64,000 nt of DNA, taken from IMG/VR virus record IMGVR_UViG_3300037067_009382, positions 1 through 64,000 of that record, one strand, 5' to 3'. The translations under genes and the position numbers were made by a program. This DNA comes from a virus (lineage: Duplodnaviria; Caudoviricetes). Positions 53,625 through 64,000 of this stretch are shown one piece after another. Within the stretch, counting starts at the first letter, position 1. Each line of letters starts with the position of its first letter. Below the pieces are notes generated by a model. That model saw only the letters and a program-made list of their open reading frames with translations, had not been told where the DNA came from and did no database searches.

Positions 53625-54962
53625 TTAGTTCAGATCAACGATCTTCGCCTGTTTCCGGAAGTCGTAGCACTTTAGTTCCATCGTGGTACGGAACAGACCC
53701 ACAATCGCAAGTTTCCCTACGATGATAGGATCTCTCTGTTCGAAGTACTCGGTGGTGAATGCAACGCCAACTTCCAACCATCTGGTATCCAGGACATAGA
53801 AGTTGGAACCGGCCAGGGTGAAATCGGCCTTCGTGGATTTCGGAGTATCGACATCGGCGAACAGAGCGATACCATCGTAGGTGCTGACTTGGAAGCCAGC
53901 TCTCTGACCGGGAATGTTTTCTTCTCCACCACGTTTGACCTGAAAGTCGCCTGTCTCCATATAGCGTCTTTGCGCCTGGAGAGCCTGTTTGAAATGACGC
54001 TGTTGATCGGTACCGGTTAAGAGCAGATCGGGTTCACCACCGTAGAATCTGACCCTCTCGATAGCCTCATCAACATAGTCGGTATCGAAATCGCGTGGTA
54101 CACCATCACCGTCAAAGACGTTACCTGCATTGTATGCCAGAGCAGTTCTGGTAGCGCCGCCAGGTGTAGCAGCGGTGAAGTTGTAGCAGTCGACGTTCTG
54201 GTTGTTGGCACCGGCTACAGTACGGCCATCTTCCTCGATGATGTCATCGAGTGAGGTCATACCTTTTCTGCTCTTGACGGTAATAGCATCGCTTTGGACC
54301 AGAGCCGCAGCGGCACCACCACCAACTAGAGTAAAGCCGATCACACCGGTTGTGGTATTGATAGCGGTCAGGAGAATGCCTCCTGCGGCCGCATTCTGGC
54401 TTTCCCAAAGGATATCGCCAATTCTGAAGGCAGAGGGATTGGAAACCGCGGCAACGCCTGTCAAGCCGGCAGTTTTGACAACATCGACAGCGGAACACAA
54501 CAGTTCCTGTTGGAGTTCCTTGACGTGGTCAATTTCACCGAACTGTAACTCTTTTGCCATCGCGTCTCCGATACCGCCCTCTTTGGTTGCAATCCATTGA
54601 GCCAGTTCGGATGAACCGACGGGTGTCACTACCTGGCGAGGCAGTGAATATACTGATTGGTAAGTCTGCTTACCAACATCGGGCAGGGCCTCAATCTCTC
54701 CGATAGGTTTAGATTGAGCGTTCCTCGCAGAACGGATACGCCAACCGATAACGTTACCCCAGGTGTTATGACGCAGGAGATTGAAGAACTTCCTTTGAGA
54801 GTTCAACGAGTCCCACACCTTTGCACCGTAGGTGACATTAAAGAAGTCGGCAACCTGCAGCGGGTCGTCAGCCTTCAACAGGTATTCGCCTGCTAGCCCG
54901 AAGGGACGTGACTGTGATCGCTGAATAAACTCCAGCACCGTTTGTTTAAGCTGTGGACTCAT
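53625..54962 (-). CDS. Major capsid protein (HK97 fold) with an internal insertion
   Basis: Follows protease and scaffold; GEPDLLLTG, VSTYDGIALFAD, YVLDT, ELKC..F..Q; N-terminal LLKA. Confidence 0.85.
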   Translation of the reverse strand: MSPQLKQTVLEFIQRSQSRPFGLAGEYLLKADDPLQVADFFNVTYGAKVWDSLNSQRKFFNLLRHNTWGNVIGWRIRSARNAQSKPIGEIEALPDVGKQTYQSVYSLPRQVVTPVGSSELAQWIATKEGGIGDAMAKELQFGEIDHVKELQQELLCSAVDVVKTAGLTGVAAVSNPSAFRIGDILWESQNAAAGGILLTAINTTTGVIGFTLVGGGAAAALVQSDAITVKSRKGMTSLDDIIEEDGRTVAGANNQNVDCYNFTAATPGGATRTALAYNAGNVFDGDGVPRDFDTDYVDEAIERVRFYGGEPDLLLTGTDQQRHFKQALQAQRRYMETGDFQVKRGGEENIPGQRAGFQVSTYDGIALFADVDTPKSTKADFTLAGSNFYVLDTRWLEVGVAFTTEYFEQRDPIIVGKLAIVGLFRTTMELKCYDFRKQAKIVDLN

Positions 54963-55766
54963 TTACATCCCTCCTCTTAAAGGTAGTCCACGAGTGTTGC
55001 CCAGGAAAGCTCTATACGCTGGGTCGATTGATCTTCGCATCGCTATAATATTTTCCCAGGATTGACCCGTGACCTGCTTCGCTACGTTCTCAGCCTCGGT
55101 TTGCTCATCGCCAGGAGCTTCCACGGACTTTCGAATTTCGCTCGGCTCGGCTTTTTCTACATTGGCCGGTAAGGCGCCTGAGGCTGTGACAAAACCTTCT
55201 TCCGCCATCTTCTGTTGGAAGCGAGCATTGACCATTTCCTCAACTTTGTCAGCCGGGATCATTTTTGCAATAGTCCCGTTGAGACGACTGATTTCCTGAT
55301 TAGCATTATCGAGCTGTTTCGCCAGTACCTCTTCGCGCTTGGACGCAATATTCCCGTAGGGGAACGGGAAGGCTTTCTTGACATCCTTGGCTTCCGAAAT
55401 GGGGTAGGGGTACGGCTTCTCTTTATCGCCCGGTTCACATTCTTCTGCATTGGTGACTTCAGGCTTCCAAGGACCTTCGGCGGAAACTTTCTTGGGAGCG
55501 GTTTGAGTAGTCTGTTCCATTTCTTTCTTGACGGCTTTCTTTGCCTCGGCCATCAATTCGGGCGGGAACCCTTTCTCATCCTTTTCCTTCGCCTCTTCCT
55601 CTTTTTCCTTTTTGTCTTCTGGTTCATCCTTCGCGGGCTCTTCAGCCTTAATGACCTGCCTTAATAGGCTGTTGGTCTCTTCTTGGGCTTTGAGCAGTTG
55701 CGCGAGGGGTCCGCCCTCAGTGGACTTTTCGAGGGTGGCTGTGTTGGTCTCGTTCTCTTTCTTCAA
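54963..55766 (-). CDS. Capsid scaffold protein
   Basis: Highly charged and helical; between protease and MCP; many K-[A/S] sites. Confidence 0.75.
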   Translation of the reverse strand: MKKENETNTATLEKSTEGGPLAQLLKAQEETNSLLRQVIKAEEPAKDEPEDKKEKEEEAKEKDEKGFPPELMAEAKKAVKKEMEQTTQTAPKKVSAEGPWKPEVTNAEECEPGDKEKPYPYPISEAKDVKKAFPFPYGNIASKREEVLAKQLDNANQEISRLNGTIAKMIPADKVEEMVNARFQQKMAEEGFVTASGALPANVEKAEPSEIRKSVEAPGDEQTEAENVAKQVTGQSWENIIAMRRSIDPAYRAFLGNTRGLPLRGGM

Positions 55767-55953: not shown

Positions 55954-57498
55954 TTACGAGGCTAGATACAACCCTTTGGTATCTAGCGTAGCTGAATCGG
56001 CTTCTACGTCATCGCACTTCAGTAGGATGAACTTCGCTGCCTGGTTCTTTCCTTCCTCGCAGATCGTGACTTCATGCAACTCGAGGTTGGTTACATCCCA
56101 CCAGCAAACATTATTCTCGCATACGTACTTCCGCCCGAGTGCCTCGCCCCCGATTGAGAAGCTCCGTAGTATGCCTTTCCTGATGAGGTCTATGACATCA
56201 CGAGCGATCTTGACATCGTCTCGAAGGATGCACACCACAAATAGACCAATATCGTCTACCTGGCTAATCCATTTCTTTCCATCGTTGTCAGTATATTCTG
56301 GCACTACTTCTGCTACTTGAGCATTGCGGTGCTTGATCATTACGTTGCGGAACTTAGGTTGCTCCATAAACTTCGCGAAGGCTTTCTTCAAGGCATACAG
56401 TGGAATGCGATGTCCTTCTTTATCACGCACCACCGGAGAAGCGTATCCGGCGATAACAACTTTCTTCTTTTCGGCTTTCTCAATAATGAATGCCTTATCC
56501 ATCAATCCTGTATACATGGGTGTCGCAGTATCAAAGACGAGAGTATCTTCCTTCAGCAGATAGTTGCCCGTTACGATATAATGCATCCCGGCGAAGCCTA
56601 ACTCGATCTTCTTCTGGGAGTTAAGTCCATCCACGACCCTGATTGTTGCCTCACGCATTGGCTCACTATCGGAAATACCAAATAGCTCGCACAGGTACCA
56701 ATTTCGTGGTCTTCCTGCCTCGAGCGAAATTAACTTGTCGAGGGCCATTGCGATCTGTACCCTATCGTCGGGATGATTTAGGTCATCAGCAGCGTCCTCG
56801 AGCACACTGTATACCTTACCAGCGTCTGCACGCTTCATCTCGAGTTCTTCTGAATCAACCCCACCTGCTCCAAGCTTGTCGATGTCACGTAACTCTCTAT
56901 CGTGAGCGAGATATCGCTTCCGAACATCGTCGGCACATTTCATTACGCGGGGTCTGAGATTAGTTGCAACAACGTTCAACTGATTATCAGTCACGGTCTT
57001 ATCAGGATTGGCTAAATCCAAATACGTTTGGAGCATCTTGAAATAATGCTCGTGAGGCCCACCATATCCCTGGATAGACTGTCTTGGGTGTCCACCCATA
57101 AACTCGCTAACACTAAAAGGCCCCTCAATCGAAACGTCGGAGGCATCTTCACCCCAATGCACCTGATCCACTGGATGGGGTTCATCATATCCCACGTGTC
57201 TATGCTCTTCAATAGTAGGATTTACCCGTGGAAGAATTTTGCGGATAATAAATTGTTGGGCAATTCCAACTGTCTCGATAGCCTTATGCATAGCCTCACC
57301 GGGCATATAGTCGACCTTCTCGTTTGTCCCTATCGTCAGAGGTAAGGACTCATCGGTCGTATCTGGTTCGTATTTCTCTACGGGACGCTTTGAGATTTCC
57401 TCGTGCAACTTCTTCAGTTCGGACTCGTCCATCTTTTTGAGATCCATACTACGCTCCTTTAGGCCCCGCCTCTTGTGTATTATACGTTTCGCCATCAC
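55954..57498 (-). CDS. HK97-type prohead protease with a ~340-aa N-terminal extension
   Basis: IAGYAS..DKEG, catalytic His (IKHRN) and Ser (SFSIGG), LHEVTIC..G.NQ.A. Confidence 0.88.
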   Translation of the reverse strand: MMAKRIIHKRRGLKERSMDLKKMDESELKKLHEEISKRPVEKYEPDTTDESLPLTIGTNEKVDYMPGEAMHKAIETVGIAQQFIIRKILPRVNPTIEEHRHVGYDEPHPVDQVHWGEDASDVSIEGPFSVSEFMGGHPRQSIQGYGGPHEHYFKMLQTYLDLANPDKTVTDNQLNVVATNLRPRVMKCADDVRKRYLAHDRELRDIDKLGAGGVDSEELEMKRADAGKVYSVLEDAADDLNHPDDRVQIAMALDKLISLEAGRPRNWYLCELFGISDSEPMREATIRVVDGLNSQKKIELGFAGMHYIVTGNYLLKEDTLVFDTATPMYTGLMDKAFIIEKAEKKKVVIAGYASPVVRDKEGHRIPLYALKKAFAKFMEQPKFRNVMIKHRNAQVAEVVPEYTDNDGKKWISQVDDIGLFVVCILRDDVKIARDVIDLIRKGILRSFSIGGEALGRKYVCENNVCWWDVTNLELHEVTICEEGKNQAAKFILLKCDDVEADSATLDTKGLYLAS

Positions 57499-57664
57499 CT
57501 TCCGGACTCGGTGGAATCTCGTCGATCTTAGTGACTCCCTTTGGTTCGGGTGTCACCCTAAATCCGAATTCTTCCTCGGCTGCAAAAATCTCGTCACGAA
57601 ACTTTTTCCTCTCTTCGGGTGTCATCATATGTCTCTCCTTAATCGGGCTCGGCTCCGAATCCAT
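57449..57664 (-). CDS. Small acidic protein
   Basis: 71-aa coupled ORF. Confidence 0.55.
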   Translation of the reverse strand: MDSEPSPIKERHMMTPEERKKFRDEIFAAEEEFGFRVTPEPKGVTKIDEIPPSPEGDGETYNTQEAGPKGA

Positions 57665-60341
57665 CTACAAACTTCTCCATTCCAGCGCGATCGATATGCC
57701 AAATCTCACTACCGCTCGAAGTCTTCAATTTCATCGTGAACCCTAACTTTTTATAGAACCCCTTTGCGCTCTCGACTGGGATGAGTGTCACTTCTTGAAT
57801 CTTCTCATCATCGAGCGTATTCATAAACAGCTCGGCCATCAGACGTGAGCCAATATGTGTAACATGCCGTGCATCAGTTGACTTAGGATAATTCCAGGGC
57901 GCTGAAGCCAAGAAGTCAACGTGCACAGCATCGCCCTTCGGTCGTTTGAAGTACGCCATAACTCCTTGAGTTTGGCCCTTCGCGGTAATATGCATTCCCT
58001 GGTCGTTTCCTCGAGAGATTTCGGCCATTGCTCCAACTCCGTCAGCAAGTGACTCCCTAACCTGGGCGCGTTGTTCGGGAGTGATCGCCCTCTTGACGAT
58101 TGCATCGTGCGCTTCAGTCCATCGTGCCTCTGCATCGCCAAGTCGCTCTTGATCAGTTGAGTGTACTGTATGGGGTAGATCTAGCACATCATCGGAAGTG
58201 GTTGGTCTACCGGCTCCAACGTGCTTGGGTGCCTCTGTAGGTGCAACTGTCGCAGGTAGCTGTGTTGCTTCAGGTTTCAGTCCGAGCTGTTTAGCCTGCT
58301 CTGGTGTTACCCAGAATTTTTGATAGAACGTCTTCCCACCTCGTGTGATAGGTTTATTGACAAGAACCTTACCTACGTTAGAGAAGGCTTTCTCCATCTG
58401 GGTAATTCTATCCTCGGGCTTGATTTCTACACCCTGAGGAATGCCATCGAACACCTCTTTCAGCGTTTCGGGATTTCTTAGTCCATAGTTCTCGTGTAGT
58501 ATCTCTTTGAATACTCCCAGGTTATAATTATCGATCTCCGCTTCGGTTATCCATTTGTAGTCGGTATGCTCTTCGGACAGCTTAACATCGCCCGTAGCAC
58601 TTGCTTCGTAGAAGATTACGGGTTTAGTCTCCTTCCCGAGCTTGAGCACCTTTACAGTAAAGCAATCGGGATCGGATATCATTAGACCCGCTTCCTCTTT
58701 AACTTCGCGTGCGAGTGCATCCTCAAGCTTCTCTTCGTCCTTCAAATGTCCACCGGGTAGATCCCACCAATCGCTACCCGCATCTTTCAATATCAAGATC
58801 TTGCCATCCTTACGAATGACAGCCTTAACCGAAAGTTTAATGTCCTGAGCTTTAGTGAATGGGATGCCTCGTTTACTCATTTCGTCTTCGAGCACCACTA
58901 TCATTACGTCATTGGGCAGGGCGTTCTCTGGTGAGAGCGGATCCCAGATCGTCATAGGTTCGTCGGTGCTAATTCCCTCACTAGATTGTCCTGGAAACAG
59001 ATTCGCGATCGTTCTCTTGCGGCCACTACCACCAAACGTTGGAGTGAAGCCTGTAGATGTAACTGTCGCTCCACCAAAGCCTCCATCTCCGCCACCCTCT
59101 TTCTCGACGTTACCATATCGAGTTGTGGTTCGTTCGCCCTCTCGATAAATCTCATCTGCCACGCGCAGCGCATTGGTAAGGTTAGTAGAGCGTTCGGACA
59201 TCTCCTTCTGTACACGTTTCAGAGCTCCTGTGTACTGTTGCCAAAGTTCAGCAGTACCTCTATCCTTATTCGCTAACGCATTCTCGATCTCACTATCGAG
59301 AATGCCTATCGCCTCCGCAATCATGTCATTATCGTATAGTAGTCGTGCCTTTGCAATACCCCGAGAGGTATAGCCTGAGATCGGAATCTGAGATAGGCGG
59401 TCGAGAGGTGTTGTATCGTCAGGTTCACTCTTCATTATTATATTAGTGGCTCGTGGTAGGTATGCGGTAAAGGTTTTGAACTCACCCTTTCGTATTGTAT
59501 CGGTTCCGGCCATTTCCACACCTAGTATGCCACCTACGGAAACATTCATATCAGTATTAACACTCTGCCCTAATCGCAGGTAGTACTTACCTTCAAATTC
59601 AATTGCGTCTGCTTTAGGCATTCCCGAAGATTTTGCAACGCGCGTGTCGTCAATTCTCACTTGACCAGTCTCGGGTGCTCTAGCAGGCCCCCATCCACGA
59701 GAGTAAAGCTTACAGCGTCCCTTCGGACTAATCGAGCCGATAACCTTAACGCATCCACCTGAATCCTTTGCGGGCTCACTCGCTCCTTCCTTCTTGATGA
59801 AAGACTTACATGTCGCACACCTATCTGAAGAGGAGGAGTTGTCCACATACGAAGCCTCATTCTTGGAAATCTTAGCCTTAGCCAGATGGGCTTGCAAAAT
59901 GAGATGGCTCGTTAACATAGTACCGGCGAGCAACTCCTCGAGCAATAGCTCATCTCCCTTGGAGAGCAGTTCACCTAATTTTCCCATCCCTATTGTTTCG
60001 GCCCATTCTTTACTGATCGGCCCTACGGCTACCTCATAGCGGAACATCTTATCGCTTGGAGCTGATTTCGCAACCACTAGCATCTTTGCAGTGGTTCCAC
60101 TTACAGGCCCGTTATACTCTGTCGGTAGGGCCTTCTTAACTCCGTGGGTTGCTGAAATAGCAGCAACGATTGAAGCTAGGCCGTCTTCGGAGTAATCGTT
60201 AAACCTCTGGGCGAATTCCTCTTTCGTTATATCACCTGGTAGTGATTCAACATCGCACCAGTAGGTAACCGCCTCCTGTGACATGCCTTTCAGAAGTTCT
60301 TTTACGCTTGCTTCATAATCAATCATACCATCACTCCCCAT
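57639..60341 (-). CDS. Multi-domain head-associated protein: HiPIP-like 4-Cys domain, NUDIX hydrolase, shared tag, GNAT-like domain
   Basis: CATC..GCVKVIGSISPKGRCKLY; intact Nudix box GGHLKDEEKLEDALAREVKEEAGL; C-terminal VDFLASAP..GSRLM..GFYKKLGF. Confidence 0.8.
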   Translation of the reverse strand: MGSDGMIDYEASVKELLKGMSQEAVTYWCDVESLPGDITKEEFAQRFNDYSEDGLASIVAAISATHGVKKALPTEYNGPVSGTTAKMLVVAKSAPSDKMFRYEVAVGPISKEWAETIGMGKLGELLSKGDELLLEELLAGTMLTSHLILQAHLAKAKISKNEASYVDNSSSSDRCATCKSFIKKEGASEPAKDSGGCVKVIGSISPKGRCKLYSRGWGPARAPETGQVRIDDTRVAKSSGMPKADAIEFEGKYYLRLGQSVNTDMNVSVGGILGVEMAGTDTIRKGEFKTFTAYLPRATNIIMKSEPDDTTPLDRLSQIPISGYTSRGIAKARLLYDNDMIAEAIGILDSEIENALANKDRGTAELWQQYTGALKRVQKEMSERSTNLTNALRVADEIYREGERTTTRYGNVEKEGGGDGGFGGATVTSTGFTPTFGGSGRKRTIANLFPGQSSEGISTDEPMTIWDPLSPENALPNDVMIVVLEDEMSKRGIPFTKAQDIKLSVKAVIRKDGKILILKDAGSDWWDLPGGHLKDEEKLEDALAREVKEEAGLMISDPDCFTVKVLKLGKETKPVIFYEASATGDVKLSEEHTDYKWITEAEIDNYNLGVFKEILHENYGLRNPETLKEVFDGIPQGVEIKPEDRITQMEKAFSNVGKVLVNKPITRGGKTFYQKFWVTPEQAKQLGLKPEATQLPATVAPTEAPKHVGAGRPTTSDDVLDLPHTVHSTDQERLGDAEARWTEAHDAIVKRAITPEQRAQVRESLADGVGAMAEISRGNDQGMHITAKGQTQGVMAYFKRPKGDAVHVDFLASAPWNYPKSTDARHVTHIGSRLMAELFMNTLDDEKIQEVTLIPVESAKGFYKKLGFTMKLKTSSGSEIWHIDRAGMEKFVDGFGAEPD

Positions 60342-61384
60342 GGCTTCATTTCCGGAGCCAGTACTGTCTTAATCACGTTTCCGATTCCCACTACGAATCC
60401 ATCTTGCGAAATGTGGTGATACCAATCCTTGGGCGGTAACTGCTTCTTTGAGAGATTCGCAATGCTCTCTTTGATTACTCCAAAGCCCGTTCGTTCTATC
60501 TCCCTCTGCCATGCATGAGTCGAAACTCTTAATGGTTGGGCTTGAGGCACGGCCGTATGGGTCGTTGAGGCGGGTTCCTCAGGTTTAACGTGTACAGTCT
60601 GCATAAACGTCTTCCCGTCACGAGTTACCTGTACCTTCTGAGGTTGTGTTCCAACGGGTATAGCCTTCTGGAATTCAAGTGTAGCCTTTCTCGCGAATGA
60701 GGCAACACCCTCGAGATCACTAAGCGTTCCTCTCCCAGAGGCCAGATTTCTATCGAACATCATGTGCCTAAGTTCGGCACTCTTCCGAACCATATCACGA
60801 ATCGCGATCTTTGTTTCGTCGTCAGTCTTCTCAAGCTTATCTGGTGAGGCATCAAACCTCTCCCAGACGTTCAATTCCTCTTTTACTAGCTGAAGGCGAT
60901 CCAGTATTTCATCTGAATCCATCTTCAACCCCTGGCGGATCATCCTCACAGCCTCATTCAGATATCCCGATACAGTAGACCAGTGGGAATCCGTACAACT
61001 TACGCAAGAAGGGGATTTTTCACCCAGGGTAATTTCGGATTTTACCGTGTCTTTGCCTTGAGGCTGTATATTAGTATTGTCCTCTTCTGCTAGTAATCCC
61101 GCTTGATTTCGATTGATCAATTCCGCAGTCAAAACCGCGGCGAGTATCTCGGCATCCTCTTGTTTGATCTTTCGGCGTGCCTGTTTTGCAACAAGACTCG
61201 CCCAAGCCTCGCGCAGCTCGTCTTCCTTTATGTCGTCAAGACAGTGCTCGTCTTGGGCTATTTTATTGAGGGCTTCTTCTCCACGAATGAACGCTAGGGC
61301 ACCCACCTTTCGCGCTATCTGGGATGAACCATACGGTCCACTCTTCCCCCAGTAATATCCGTCCTTCTTTTCTAGTATTGCCAT
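60323..61384 (-). CDS. Head-associated protein carrying the shared tag
   Basis: FQKA...QKVQVTRDGKTFMQTVHVKPE. Confidence 0.7.
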   Translation of the reverse strand: MAILEKKDGYYWGKSGPYGSSQIARKVGALAFIRGEEALNKIAQDEHCLDDIKEDELREAWASLVAKQARRKIKQEDAEILAAVLTAELINRNQAGLLAEEDNTNIQPQGKDTVKSEITLGEKSPSCVSCTDSHWSTVSGYLNEAVRMIRQGLKMDSDEILDRLQLVKEELNVWERFDASPDKLEKTDDETKIAIRDMVRKSAELRHMMFDRNLASGRGTLSDLEGVASFARKATLEFQKAIPVGTQPQKVQVTRDGKTFMQTVHVKPEEPASTTHTAVPQAQPLRVSTHAWQREIERTGFGVIKESIANLSKKQLPPKDWYHHISQDGFVVGIGNVIKTVLAPEMKPWGVMV

Positions 61385-61392
61385 TTCTTCAC

Positions 61393-61902
61393 CTACCGTA
61401 TCCTATCTAATCTGTGCATCAAGAAATCGGGCATGTGCCTGATCCCATCAGCTACTGCATACGCCATATAGTATTTTGGTGCCTCCGCTGGAATGGGGTG
61501 TTCCTGTGTACCGACTACTCTGAATCCGATATTCCTTCCACCATATCGCAAGTGTGCGATCGCACCAGTTTCGTATACCCGTTGGTAGGGTTGAATCGCT
61601 ATTGAGCGCTCTCCATGACCACCTCGAGCACGTATGTGACCTTGAACCAATCGAGGAGTGGGATTTCGTATGACCCATTCTCTATGGCCCCATTCAACTG
61701 CTGCCGCATGAATTGCTCTATAGCCTACCTCAAATCCATCGTGCGTATTCCGATCGAAGTATCCTGAGTGTAGCAGTGTCGCATCATCGGTGAATCGCGA
61801 AACGTTGCGCTGCGATTCAGCAAAGATAAACTCGCCGGTATCCTTAACTCCCTCTACGAGGGCGTCCACAATCTCGTTAATTGATTCCTTCGATATGTGC
61901 AT
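61393..61902 (-). CDS. Neck / tail-completion protein (HK97 gp10-like)
   Basis: LLHSG..VGY.A.HA..VEWGH...P.YYM..AV. Confidence 0.6.
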   Translation of the reverse strand: MHISKESINEIVDALVEGVKDTGEFIFAESQRNVSRFTDDATLLHSGYFDRNTHDGFEVGYRAIHAAAVEWGHREWVIRNPTPRLVQGHIRARGGHGERSIAIQPYQRVYETGAIAHLRYGGRNIGFRVVGTQEHPIPAEAPKYYMAYAVADGIRHMPDFLMHRLDRIR

Positions 61903-61909
61903 AAAACTC

Positions 61910-64000
61910 CTACGAGGTTACGACGATACCTTTGATATCCTCGTTATCGATTGGAGTAGCTTTCCAACCCGCCTCGCGCAATTTAGCGGCCCTTCGACTT
62001 AAGTCGCCCTTTGTCTCACCCGAACCTGCTGCGACTACTGCAAAGTGTCCAGTCTCCTTTCCCTCGGCGTCATAAGTATGATAGGTTGAACCATATACGG
62101 TATAGCCCTTACTCGTAGAGCTATTTAGTTGGTCTGCCGCTTCCCTAGCTAAGGATTCGGCCTTATTCCGATCGAACGTCTTATGGCCCTGACCCTTTAA
62201 GTTTTCGAATACCTTCACCTTACCAGTCTCTTCAGGACTGAGTTTGCTTGGTTCTTCCGATCCACCACGTTCTTCGGGCTTGCCATAGGTCTCTTCAAAC
62301 TCTGACAAATCCTGTTCGGCGTTACGCTTCTCCTCAGGAGTTTTGGCACCATTTATTCGTGAGACTATACTTCGGCGCTCACCACGATAATTCTGATCAG
62401 TGAAGATAGGTCGTGAAGGCTCGTAAGGCTTTCGCTCAATACTAGCGGGTTTATCACCTTCGAAGCCTCCCGTACCCTTAAAGCCTCCCTGATTAGGGTT
62501 CAGTTTGATCTTTGCTTCACCCTCGGTTGCTTCTGGTTTTACAAATACGGTCTGAGTGAAGGTCTTTCCACCTCGGGTAACTGAAATCTTCTTCGGAACG
62601 AGACCCGCTTTGAACAATCCTTCTTGTGCACCCGAATCCTGCTTGATGACCTTCTCGTGAACCATTTCATCCTCAGCAAAGATTTGACCGTCAGCTCGGA
62701 GCACGTATCTATGACCCTTATGGACGATTGTTGCATCACCATCTTTGGTCAACTCGACAACCTTCGCATCATCGCCAAGGCGTCGTAGAATATTTCGTTG
62801 CTCGTCGGAATAGAGTTCCTGCTTTTGCAACCAGGCGATTCTCCGGGCCTGAGCAAAGTCTTCCTCAGTCAGGTCACCCTTCATTTTGCGAATCTCGCCT
62901 AGTTCGAATTTGAACGTCCTTACGTAGTTCTCGTCCTGCTTGAACATCTTATCCCACAGATCGTCGACTACTGAGTTGACCGCTTTCGCGACTTCCATCT
63001 CGTCGGCGGGTTCAATTATCTCGATCGGATGAACGGGTTCCTTTGCTTTTGAGCTCCTACCAGGATCTTGCGGTTGCAAGTTTGTAGGCTGAATCGGACT
63101 CATAATATCGCTCTTCTTGATTTTGGCAACGTCAAACTCCGTCGCTTCTTGCCCAGCGGGAGTCATCGTCATCGGATGAGGTGCGATCTTCAGTCTCGAT
63201 TTATCAGCAATCGCTGGGCGGGTTTTACTCGGAGGGACTGCCCCTCCCTCTCTCACGGTTTCGTTTGGTGCGTCACTCTTCATTATCTGGGAGAGTCTAA
63301 CTGAAGCACCACTGTTGTGATTGACACTCTTTTCGACACTCTTCAGTTTCGTATAGTAATCAGGAACTTCTCTCAAGTGGGCGTAAGCGATCTTCGCTGT
63401 CTCTTTCGGATCACCATGAGTGACATCCTTATGCTCAGTCTCGACCTTCATCCCCATCTTAAATTCGTCGAAGTTATATCGATTGAAGTTAATGCCGATT
63501 GACTGCCCAAGCTTGTACAGCTCGTCATCAGACATCTTTGCTAATTTCACTCCCGGATCGATCACTCCGAATTTAGTCGCTCCCGGAGGTTGGCTTGGAG
63601 TCTGGATTGTCCCATTAACTCTTACGCCATCAAAGGTAGCAACGTCAGGAGGTGCATTAGTCCCCTCCCTTGACGTATCGGGTTCGGCTGAAACACCCAC
63701 CTTCTCTTCAGGTTCCTGTTTCCTGAGGTGAAGGTTGTCGATCGCTTTATTGATAAGCGCTTCAGCATCGAGGGGCACGTCCTCCTTTCCAATAAACGAT
63801 CCTTCTTGCGCTGGCATCTTCATATGCCCTAACGCTGTTCGCTTTATCGGTTCGGCTGGTTCAATTCCTGGTGTCATTTGAGGTATGGGAACAAACGATG
63901 ATGGATCCTTTTTCTTAATGGATCGCCCACCAGTCCTCAGAACGAGTGATTTGATCAACGCAGCCTCTTCTGACTTCAGAACAAACAGTTCCGCTATCTC
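61910..64000 (-). CDS. Large head-associated protein, 5'-truncated by the window; DUF5661-like domain and shared tag
   Basis: Frame is open to the window edge (EIAELFVLKSEEAALIKS...); FKMGMKVETEH..TAKIAYAHLREVPDYYTKL; LFKAGLVPKKISVTRGGKTFTQTVFVKPE. Confidence 0.75.
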   Translation of the reverse strand, partial: EIAELFVLKSEEAALIKSLVLRTGGRSIKKKDPSSFVPIPQMTPGIEPAEPIKRTALGHMKMPAQEGSFIGKEDVPLDAEALINKAIDNLHLRKQEPEEKVGVSAEPDTSREGTNAPPDVATFDGVRVNGTIQTPSQPPGATKFGVIDPGVKLAKMSDDELYKLGQSIGINFNRYNFDEFKMGMKVETEHKDVTHGDPKETAKIAYAHLREVPDYYTKLKSVEKSVNHNSGASVRLSQIMKSDAPNETVREGGAVPPSKTRPAIADKSRLKIAPHPMTMTPAGQEATEFDVAKIKKSDIMSPIQPTNLQPQDPGRSSKAKEPVHPIEIIEPADEMEVAKAVNSVVDDLWDKMFKQDENYVRTFKFELGEIRKMKGDLTEEDFAQARRIAWLQKQELYSDEQRNILRRLGDDAKVVELTKDGDATIVHKGHRYVLRADGQIFAEDEMVHEKVIKQDSGAQEGLFKAGLVPKKISVTRGGKTFTQTVFVKPEATEGEAKIKLNPNQGGFKGTGGFEGDKPASIERKPYEPSRPIFTDQNYRGERRSIVSRINGAKTPEEKRNAEQDLSEFEETYGKPEERGGSEEPSKLSPEETGKVKVFENLKGQGHKTFDRNKAESLAREAADQLNSSTSKGYTVYGSTYHTYDAEGKETGHFAVVAAGSGETKGDLSRRAAKLREAGWKATPIDNEDIKGIVVTS

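Follow-up and report, generated by a model that had tools for sequence, protein, structure and literature searches.

A conserved beta-hairpin tag in head-cluster proteins of an uncultured tailed phage, a candidate header for capsid-packed, injected cargo

The stretch of DNA analysed here (the window, 64,000 nucleotides) is the first 64 kb of the 90.4-kb viral record IMGVR_UViG_3300037067_009382 from IMG/VR (Duplodnaviria; Caudoviricetes; CheckV completeness ~64%), in which nearly all genes are carried on the minus strand. Near the end of the window three minus-strand open reading frames (ORFs) of the head module, termed here proteins A, B and C, each contain one copy of a short sequence tag with the motif T-R-[G/D]-G-K-T-F-x-Q, at the coordinates given in a first-pass annotation made from the sequence, and the motif is absent elsewhere in the six frames of the window. 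Our analysis suggests that the tag is a widely distributed beta-hairpin module, found with diverse effector domains in unrelated phages, and that it probably serves as a portable header of cargo that is packed in the capsid and injected into the host. The three copies and the proteins that carry them are as follows (aa, amino acids; the foreign-copy profile is based on 153 copies taken from metagenomic proteins of other origin, and to avoid circularity this phage and its close relatives did not contribute to it):

58308..58412, minus strand: tag copy in protein A (aa 644-678), 35.9 bits on the foreign-copy profile, a subtype with a K-Q-A-x-Q-L-G extension
60575..60673, minus strand: tag copy in protein B (aa 238-270), 36.7 bits on the foreign-copy profile
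62525..62629, minus strand: tag copy in protein C (aa ~520), 47.2 bits, predicted hairpin strands at 62540-62599
57639..60341, minus strand: protein A, 900 aa, with an N-terminal region, NUDIX domain, tag, linker and GNAT-like domain
58533..58823, minus strand: NUDIX hydrolase domain of protein A (aa 507-603; PF00293, E-value 2.7e-13)
57642..58307, minus strand: linker and GNAT-like payload after the tag of protein A, together with the tag homologous to a Herelleviridae virion structural protein
60323..61384, minus strand: protein B, 353 aa, no family match, with the tag followed by an 83-aa tail
61910..64000, minus strand (start at genome position 64150, past the window): protein C, 746 aa in full, with DUF5661, the tag and a ~200-aa tail, coming after a MuF-like gene
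63329..63511, minus strand: DUF5661 domain of protein C, found repeatedly in tagged proteins of other origin

A fourth copy (23.3 bits) was found 3.4 kb past the end of the window, at genome positions 67454-67543, near the N-terminus of a 288-aa ORF that comes directly after the TerL candidate. The next best match of the foreign-copy profile in the genome scored -1.5 bits and 20 shuffled genomes all remained at or below -2.2 bits; the occurrence of the motif in this genome is not due to chance. At the DNA level the window copies exhibit many synonymous differences (mean column identity 67%), which indicates selection on the peptide and not a DNA repeat. The tagged proteins had been described as otherwise unrelated, and the all-against-all BLASTP comparison of the four proteins agrees, in that it finds only the tag in common, apart from one leader. 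The upstream hydrophobic-x-K-A sites reported for the three window copies (MEKA, FQKA and LFKA) are present as well, and the C-terminal parts are indeed different: a GNAT-like domain follows the tag in A, and the tails of B and C (83 aa and ~200 aa) are unrelated and without a family match. The leader is a 30-residue stretch common to protein C (aa 47-76, window 63730-63819) and the N-terminus of the 288-aa ORF (genome 67529-67618), with 43% identity and an E-value of 1.5e-4. In protein C this leader precedes a short stretch, R-T-G-G-R, possibly the remnant of a fifth, decayed tag copy close to the N-terminus, which the profile did not detect.

The first-pass annotation had proposed a family search with a profile of the tag. 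A HMMER search of 1.84 billion representative proteins with a 35-column profile of ten copies identified a modular family of 234 protein clusters with E-values of 1e-3 or lower (18 clusters at 1e-10 or lower), carried by many uncultured and a few cultured phages. The extended consensus comprises a hydrophobic-x-K-[A/G/S] site, about 3 residues, and the stretch G-L-V-P-x-K-x-x-V-T-R-G-G-K-T-F-x-Q-T-[V/F]-[W/Y]-V-[K/R]-P-[E/D/G], and the whole module is ~35-40 residues long. The ten matched clusters that were looked up are all tiny, nameless and metagenomic. No model covering the module was found in Pfam or NCBIfam, and a literature search with the tag motif strings found no paper. Likewise, no solved relative was found in the PDB by sequence, either for the tag profile or for ORF083 of phage GH15 (see below), a word index of 5.8 billion proteins yielded nothing but the self-match for the 51-aa tag region and for longer targets, and narrow patterns run against species-representative genomes reported one contig of a metagenome-assembled genome only. 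The search of the ESM Atlas with the tag yielded uninformative scores (<0.9), and tblastn searches of cultured phages with single copies gave weak matches only, which are leads and not evidence by themselves.

The beta-hairpin postulated in the first-pass annotation is predicted by AlphaFold2 for two different copies, with a predicted local distance difference test score of ~89-98. Using alignments of 52-54 copies, the program predicted an antiparallel two-stranded hairpin with 9-10 residues per strand and a G-G turn, with low confidence for both flanks; in the family the turn is G-G or N-G. According to the consensus, one face of the hairpin is rich in V and F, and the other displays T, Q and K together with an aromatic residue. 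The core of the tag has a mean net charge of +4.6 and contains 2% of D and E, and of the 30 residues that follow the tag 57% are disorder-promoting (versus 46% in the remaining protein), so that the hairpin is predicted to be followed by a flexible linker. Complex prediction for the tag (submitted as an alignment) with the major capsid protein (MCP), the scaffold candidate and the protease domain returned a score of 0.00 and thus gives no verdict either way.

The modular tag-plus-payload architecture, suggested initially by three copies, recurs throughout the 234 clusters with highly diverse effector domains and a strong N-terminal bias. The first copy lies within the first 45 residues in 97 of 148 representative proteins (66%) and within the first 80 in 125 of them. 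Fifteen proteins possess 2-3 copies, usually one at the N-terminus and the others further on, at intervals of 300-600 aa; in the 1502-aa protein P0011, for instance, the order is tag, ART-PolyVal, tag, InPase, DUF5661, DUF6582, tag, with LPD1 near the end. The Pfam census of 91 matched proteins revealed Zeta toxin, AAA_33, PARP, PI3/PI4 kinase, InPase, ADP-ribosyltransferase exoenzyme, SAM lyase and 2H phosphoesterase domains, and also HipA, MuF_C, LPD3, metallopeptidases and GNAT, and further cargo at other loci includes NUDIX with ART-PolyVal, a DRAT-like domain, topoisomerase IB and a 2074-aa DarB-like protein. As judged by these domain matches, the cargo list is the domain repertoire of injected effectors of the polyvalent type (PMC5512222), and the tag appears to behave as a header ahead of each cargo unit.

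Two of the individual carriers deserve a comment. The 1055-aa tagged protein encoded at L016:3-3170 combines the catalytic core of a topoisomerase IB of the eukaryotic/poxvirus type (E-value 9e-22) with DUF5661 and the tag; its gene lies 2 kb upstream of that of an SU10-type MCP, and the topoisomerase may be carried in the virion. An 805-aa helicase of the Bacillus phage YungSlug (L006:20297-20536) exhibits a degenerate N-terminal tag-like stretch (14.9 bits, E-value 0.004) with E in place of the conserved R, and we regard it as a doubtful copy.

The genomic context was derived from ~14 loci, and in ~9 of these 14 the genes for TerL, portal, MuF, protease or MCP are found within ~3 kb of the tagged genes. 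One of these contexts is that of the present phage, with all four copies located between the TerL candidate and the prohead protease. This supports the association with head modules that had been claimed for the tag. The contexts adjoining head genes are those of this phage, its relative, YungSlug (two genes), the phage phiMa, the viral or metagenomic contigs L013, L028, L012 and L016, and the Herelleviridae core gene discussed below. In YungSlug one tagged gene comes after TerL, and a PARP protein tagged at residues 2-30 is encoded directly before the portal, protease and MCP genes; in the Thermus phage phiMa the tagged gene comes directly after a MuF-like gene.

In the present phage the head module comprises, in the order of transcription, the TerL candidate, the 288-aa ORF, the portal candidate, the MuF-like gene, protein C, a 169-aa ORF, proteins B and A, the S78 protease, the scaffold candidate and the MCP. 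The TerL candidate is a 515-aa ORF, which we take to be TerL as judged by its size and position. The portal candidate displays weak similarity to a Pfam-confirmed portal, and in the relative it is joined to MuF at its C-terminus. The portal and MuF-like ORFs (genome 64172-66759, beyond the window) overlap by 91 nucleotides in different frames; in the related contig (L005:2-1312) the portal C-terminus and MuF form one continuous ORF, with ~75% identity on both parts, and the overlap could be a split portal-MuF fusion, a sequencing frameshift or a case of programmed frameshifting. The following three genes complete the module within the window:

55954..57498, minus strand: prohead serine protease, S78 domain at aa 341-490, the candidate processing enzyme
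54963..55766, minus strand: acidic scaffold candidate, with 6 hydrophobic-x-K-[AS] sites versus 1.1 expected
53625..54962, minus strand: MCP, with a hydrophobic-x-K-A site at aa 28-31

The protease has an N-terminal extension of 330 aa, which matches no family and is conserved in the relative with 71% identity.

Of 154 copies, 108 (70%) have a hydrophobic-x-K-[AGS] site among the 13 residues that precede the hairpin, versus 3.6% of control windows, which indicates that the site belongs to the conserved module. An excess of hydrophobic-x-K-[AS] over expectation, as in the scaffold candidate, was also found in protein A (10 sites versus 3.2) and protein C (8 versus 2.7), and the scaffold of YungSlug, an unrelated phage (L009:11730-14631), contains 11 such sites. 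Sites of this type occur ~20-30 residues into the MCPs of both phages, and the C-terminus of the YungSlug protease repeats the N-terminal sequence of the MCP right after a hydrophobic-x-K-[AS] site. The distribution of these sites in the scaffold, the MCP and the protease C-terminus is consistent with a readable cleavage code of the S78 protease, and it is plausible that cleavage between K and A of the hydrophobic-x-K-A site would expose the hairpin as the N-terminus.

A related viral contig, L005, carries six tag copies in four genes between MuF and the protease:

L005, tagged gene: a DUF5661 protein
L005:3208-7875, tagged gene: a 1555-aa ORF, a fusion of a B-like and an A-like part with two further modules, and a tag before each
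L005, tagged gene: a 292-aa tag-plus-GNAT protein
L005, tagged gene: a 421-aa protein in which tags flank a domain that looks ADP-ribosyltransferase-like by eye

The 1555-aa ORF corresponds to B plus A of the window (57639-61384), without the tag and tail of B and with two modules added after NUDIX; by eye these modules look HD-like and ADP-ribosyltransferase-like, and neither has a family match. Two of the copies in the relative have a near-identical stretch of ~47 nucleotides in common. The cargo content varies between the close relatives, and after the protease L005 has a gene similar to HNH/NUMOD3 homing endonucleases (L005:13429-13947) at the position that the scaffold gene occupies in the window.

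A link to a virion protein of cultured phages is provided by gp74 of YungSlug, which has a canonical tag and is a member of phrog_1917 ("virion structural protein"; E-value 1.3e-26). phrog_1917 is a Herelleviridae core gene located directly after TerL and found in 528 phage records, with A511 gp75, P100 gp6, CKA15_094 and GH15 ORF083 among its members, and in its products the tag is degenerate but occupies the same position, with a charged linker and then a GNAT-like domain following it. The hhalign comparison of the C-terminal module of protein A with the profile of the Herelleviridae family identified their homology (probability 97.0%, E-value 8.3e-11) over 193 columns, starting at the tag; the hmmscan search reported no match to phrog_1917 for either protein A or the 288-aa ORF, and the homology of the Herelleviridae tags rests on the wider profile and hhalign. 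The family and protein A have in common a tag-like hairpin, a charged linker and a GNAT-like domain, whereas most phrog_1917 members differ from protein A by the degeneration of the tag and by an extra N-terminal region of ~90 aa. For the member from a Listeria phage, CKA15_094, the identity of which we confirmed by the locus tag and 97.8% sequence identity, 10 peptides covering 45% of the protein have been detected by electrospray ionization tandem mass spectrometry in virions that had undergone two rounds of purification on CsCl (PMC12282133). The predicted presence of tagged proteins in the virion is supported for one homologous family. No published function of the phrog_1917 family was found in the literature.

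We consider it rather probable that the tag is the portable header of cargo units that are packed in the capsid and injected into the host, its hairpin recruiting the cargo or retaining it inside the capsid. As cargo units we envisage enzymes and effectors whose genes belong to the head-morphogenesis cluster and which would enter the host together with the DNA. The tag would be N-terminal in single-cargo proteins, and in polyvalent proteins it would be repeated ahead of each successive module. The most likely mechanism would be that of a handle, for which an interior head component or the packaged DNA are the candidate partners, and the prohead protease would cut the polyproteins between K and A of the upstream site into tag-plus-cargo units. 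We infer the packaging function, the binding partner and the cleavage from the comparisons described above; the hairpin may act in loading, retention, DNA binding or ejection. A more specific version, which we put forward only tentatively, is that of a portable, receptor-independent handle that would bind something invariant, either the packaged DNA or the generic procapsid interior, and would be exposed as the mature N-terminus by prohead-protease cleavage at the hydrophobic-x-K-A site.

Several observations weigh against the interpretation of the tag as a cargo header. All window copies are internal or C-proximal (aa 644, 238 and ~520) and none is N-terminal, so that long stretches ahead of the tag, the NUDIX region of A for example, would have to be carried along or removed. 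Three contexts, namely L011, L014 and the DarB-like gene of the Thermus phage Lalka27a, lie away from head genes. Most Herelleviridae tags are remote: searched within the protein they reach 14-23 bits, and the narrow profile of ten copies missed them, degenerate as they are, when whole genomes were scanned. As regards the detection of CKA15_094, the authors caution that it need not by itself mean a genuine particle component (PMC12282133). Finally, BLASTP comparisons of the TerL, portal, scaffold, protease and MCP of this phage with the available counterparts of YungSlug, L013 and Lalka27a revealed no similarity (only E-values >0.01), whereas the tag is 50-60% identical across these phages. 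A conserved tag alongside dissimilar head proteins argues against a lineage-specific capsid surface as the receptor; its conservation may instead reflect a ligand that does not vary, such as DNA, the association of hairpins with each other, or simply the tight constraints on the sequence of a free-standing hairpin.

The first of these explanations leads to an alternative that partly overlaps with the header interpretation and that we regard as somewhat unlikely: the tag would be a nucleic-acid-binding beta-ribbon that tethers the cargo to the phage genome in the capsid and after ejection, with some other feature responsible for the entry into the procapsid. The strongly basic core, the conserved T, Q and K on one face, and the R and K that flank the turn agree with such a role, as does the conservation of the tag, which far exceeds that of every head protein of these phages and suits an invariant ligand such as DNA; in addition, the DarB-like and topoisomerase IB cargo act on DNA, and the P1 proteins DarA-Hdf touch the DNA within the head (PMC12810830). 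However, no DNA-binding family was matched with confidence: a match to Tc-38, of the ArdC-N / BHD / Tc-38 single-stranded DNA-binding fold, was reported for protein A only and below the cut-off (18.5 versus 23.2 bits, E-value 0.0017), and none of ten tag copies scanned alone matched this fold. The narrow sequence needs of a free-standing hairpin can also account for the conserved T, V, F, W and G-G, and binding to DNA alone cannot put proteins into the procapsid before the DNA enters. Unlikely in our view is a role without any loading function, in which the tag would be the docking and cleavage element of the prohead protease that splits polyvalent precursors. It would account for the frequency of the upstream site, for the same pattern at the MCP N-terminus and in the scaffolds of this phage and YungSlug, and for the mimicry of the MCP N-terminus by the YungSlug protease, and the capsid protein of HK97 is likewise cut after a lysine. 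Yet in many proteins the site and tag are only 4-8 residues from Met1, where a cut separates nothing, and in two complete tag-bearing genomes of Thermus phages, the copies of which are without a K-A site, no S78 protease was found at an E-value of 0.01 or lower. Both observations also speak against a general role of cleavage, and 25 conserved residues downstream are more than a protease site would require.

We find it improbable that the hairpins bind each other, forming with their hydrophobic faces a shared beta-structure that would bundle the cargo and be anchored by one member near the portal. One face is nearly pure V/F and must be buried, and copies of one protein or genome have lineage-specific residues in common; most well-sampled genomes contain 2-6 copies, but the complete genomes of Lalka27a and phiMa contain a single one. 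Less probable still is a tag that acts only after injection, by sending the effectors to a conserved host structure, with no role in the capsid: the high conservation across phages of hosts as different as Bacillus and Thermus could be explained in this way, but the late head-module position and the detection of the homologous family in virions indicate a virion role, and the tag resembles none of the known host-binding motifs. We consider it hardly credible that the repeat is a DNA-level junction at which cargo cassettes recombine, or that the match is due to chance or low complexity. The repeat is indeed situated at domain boundaries, and the ~47-nucleotide stretch of the relative would fit a junction; the synonymous divergence of the window copies, profile scores far above those of shuffled genomes and the protein-level conservation across unrelated phages all contradict it.

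How tailed phages choose the proteins to be packed in the capsid and injected is known only for a few models (T4, P1 and P22), each of which has its own signal. If the header interpretation is correct, the tag would mark effector cargo across unrelated phages and would make it possible to recognise injected effectors in metagenomes by their sequence, among them anti-defence enzymes such as ADP-ribosyltransferases, SAM lyase and DarB-like proteins. It would also render the processing of polyvalent proteins testable, and it could serve as a compact label for phage protein delivery. For the Herelleviridae, it provides a first structural feature of a core virion protein of unknown role. If the handle is receptor-independent, phages from those of Bacillus to those of Thermus would use one common address label for injected effectors, which could be reused to load chosen proteins.

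Among the known systems, the closest in content are polyvalent proteins, i.e. multi-domain effectors whose genes lie next to those for portal and terminase and for which packaging and injection have been predicted (Iyer, Burroughs, Anand, de Souza, Aravind 2017; PMC5512222). Tagged proteins have ART-PolyVal, InPase, LPD1/3, MuF_C, NUDIX-type and kinase domains in common with them. At least two unrelated effector domains are combined in protein A (NUDIX and GNAT-like), in the 1555-aa protein of the relative and in P0011, and the genes occupy a packaging context, between the TerL candidate, portal and MuF genes on one side and the prohead protease on the other; Pfam searches for the signature domains (ART-PolyVal, InPase, LPDs, PBECR) found none in A, B and C, only in tagged relatives. 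The main text of the article describes MuF and ArdC-N as header-like domains and autoproteolytic metallopeptidases as the means of processing, and we found no mention of the hairpin module there (PMC5512222). In contrast to systems with a MuF header, the MuF head domain was found in none of the 91 tagged proteins scanned.

The first-pass annotation had compared the tag with the capsid-targeting sequence (CTS) of T4. N-terminal capsid-targeting signals do exist in T4 IPIII and P1 DarB; they load diverse internal and injected proteins and can carry foreign ones (PMC9024508). The tag would resemble these signals in function, and it differs from them in other respects: there is no sequence relation, and the T4 CTS (as in IPIII and Alt) is removed by the protease after loading, in contrast to the tag, which would remain attached to its cargo because the putative cleavage site precedes the hairpin. 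As to position, the CTS is found at the extreme N-terminus; the tag lies in the first 45 residues in about two-thirds of the family proteins and is internal or C-proximal in the window. The tag profile found no match in the whole P1 genome at E-values up to 10, the DarB N-terminus included, and the likeness to the P1 and T4 signals is therefore functional at most. The N-termini of the P1 Dar proteins are without a consensus according to the P1 authors, whereas the tag is conserved across unrelated phages; a DarB-like protein of a Thermus phage does carry the tag. Cargo-loading peptides of encapsulins may offer a further analogy, being short and conserved, borne on flexible linkers and able to dock varied enzymes in a shell of the HK97 fold, and they would differ from the tag in that they are usually C-terminal, shorter and not hairpins. 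In comparison with these systems the novel element is the widely shared header module, and the class of packaged, polyvalent phage effectors that it joins is a known one.

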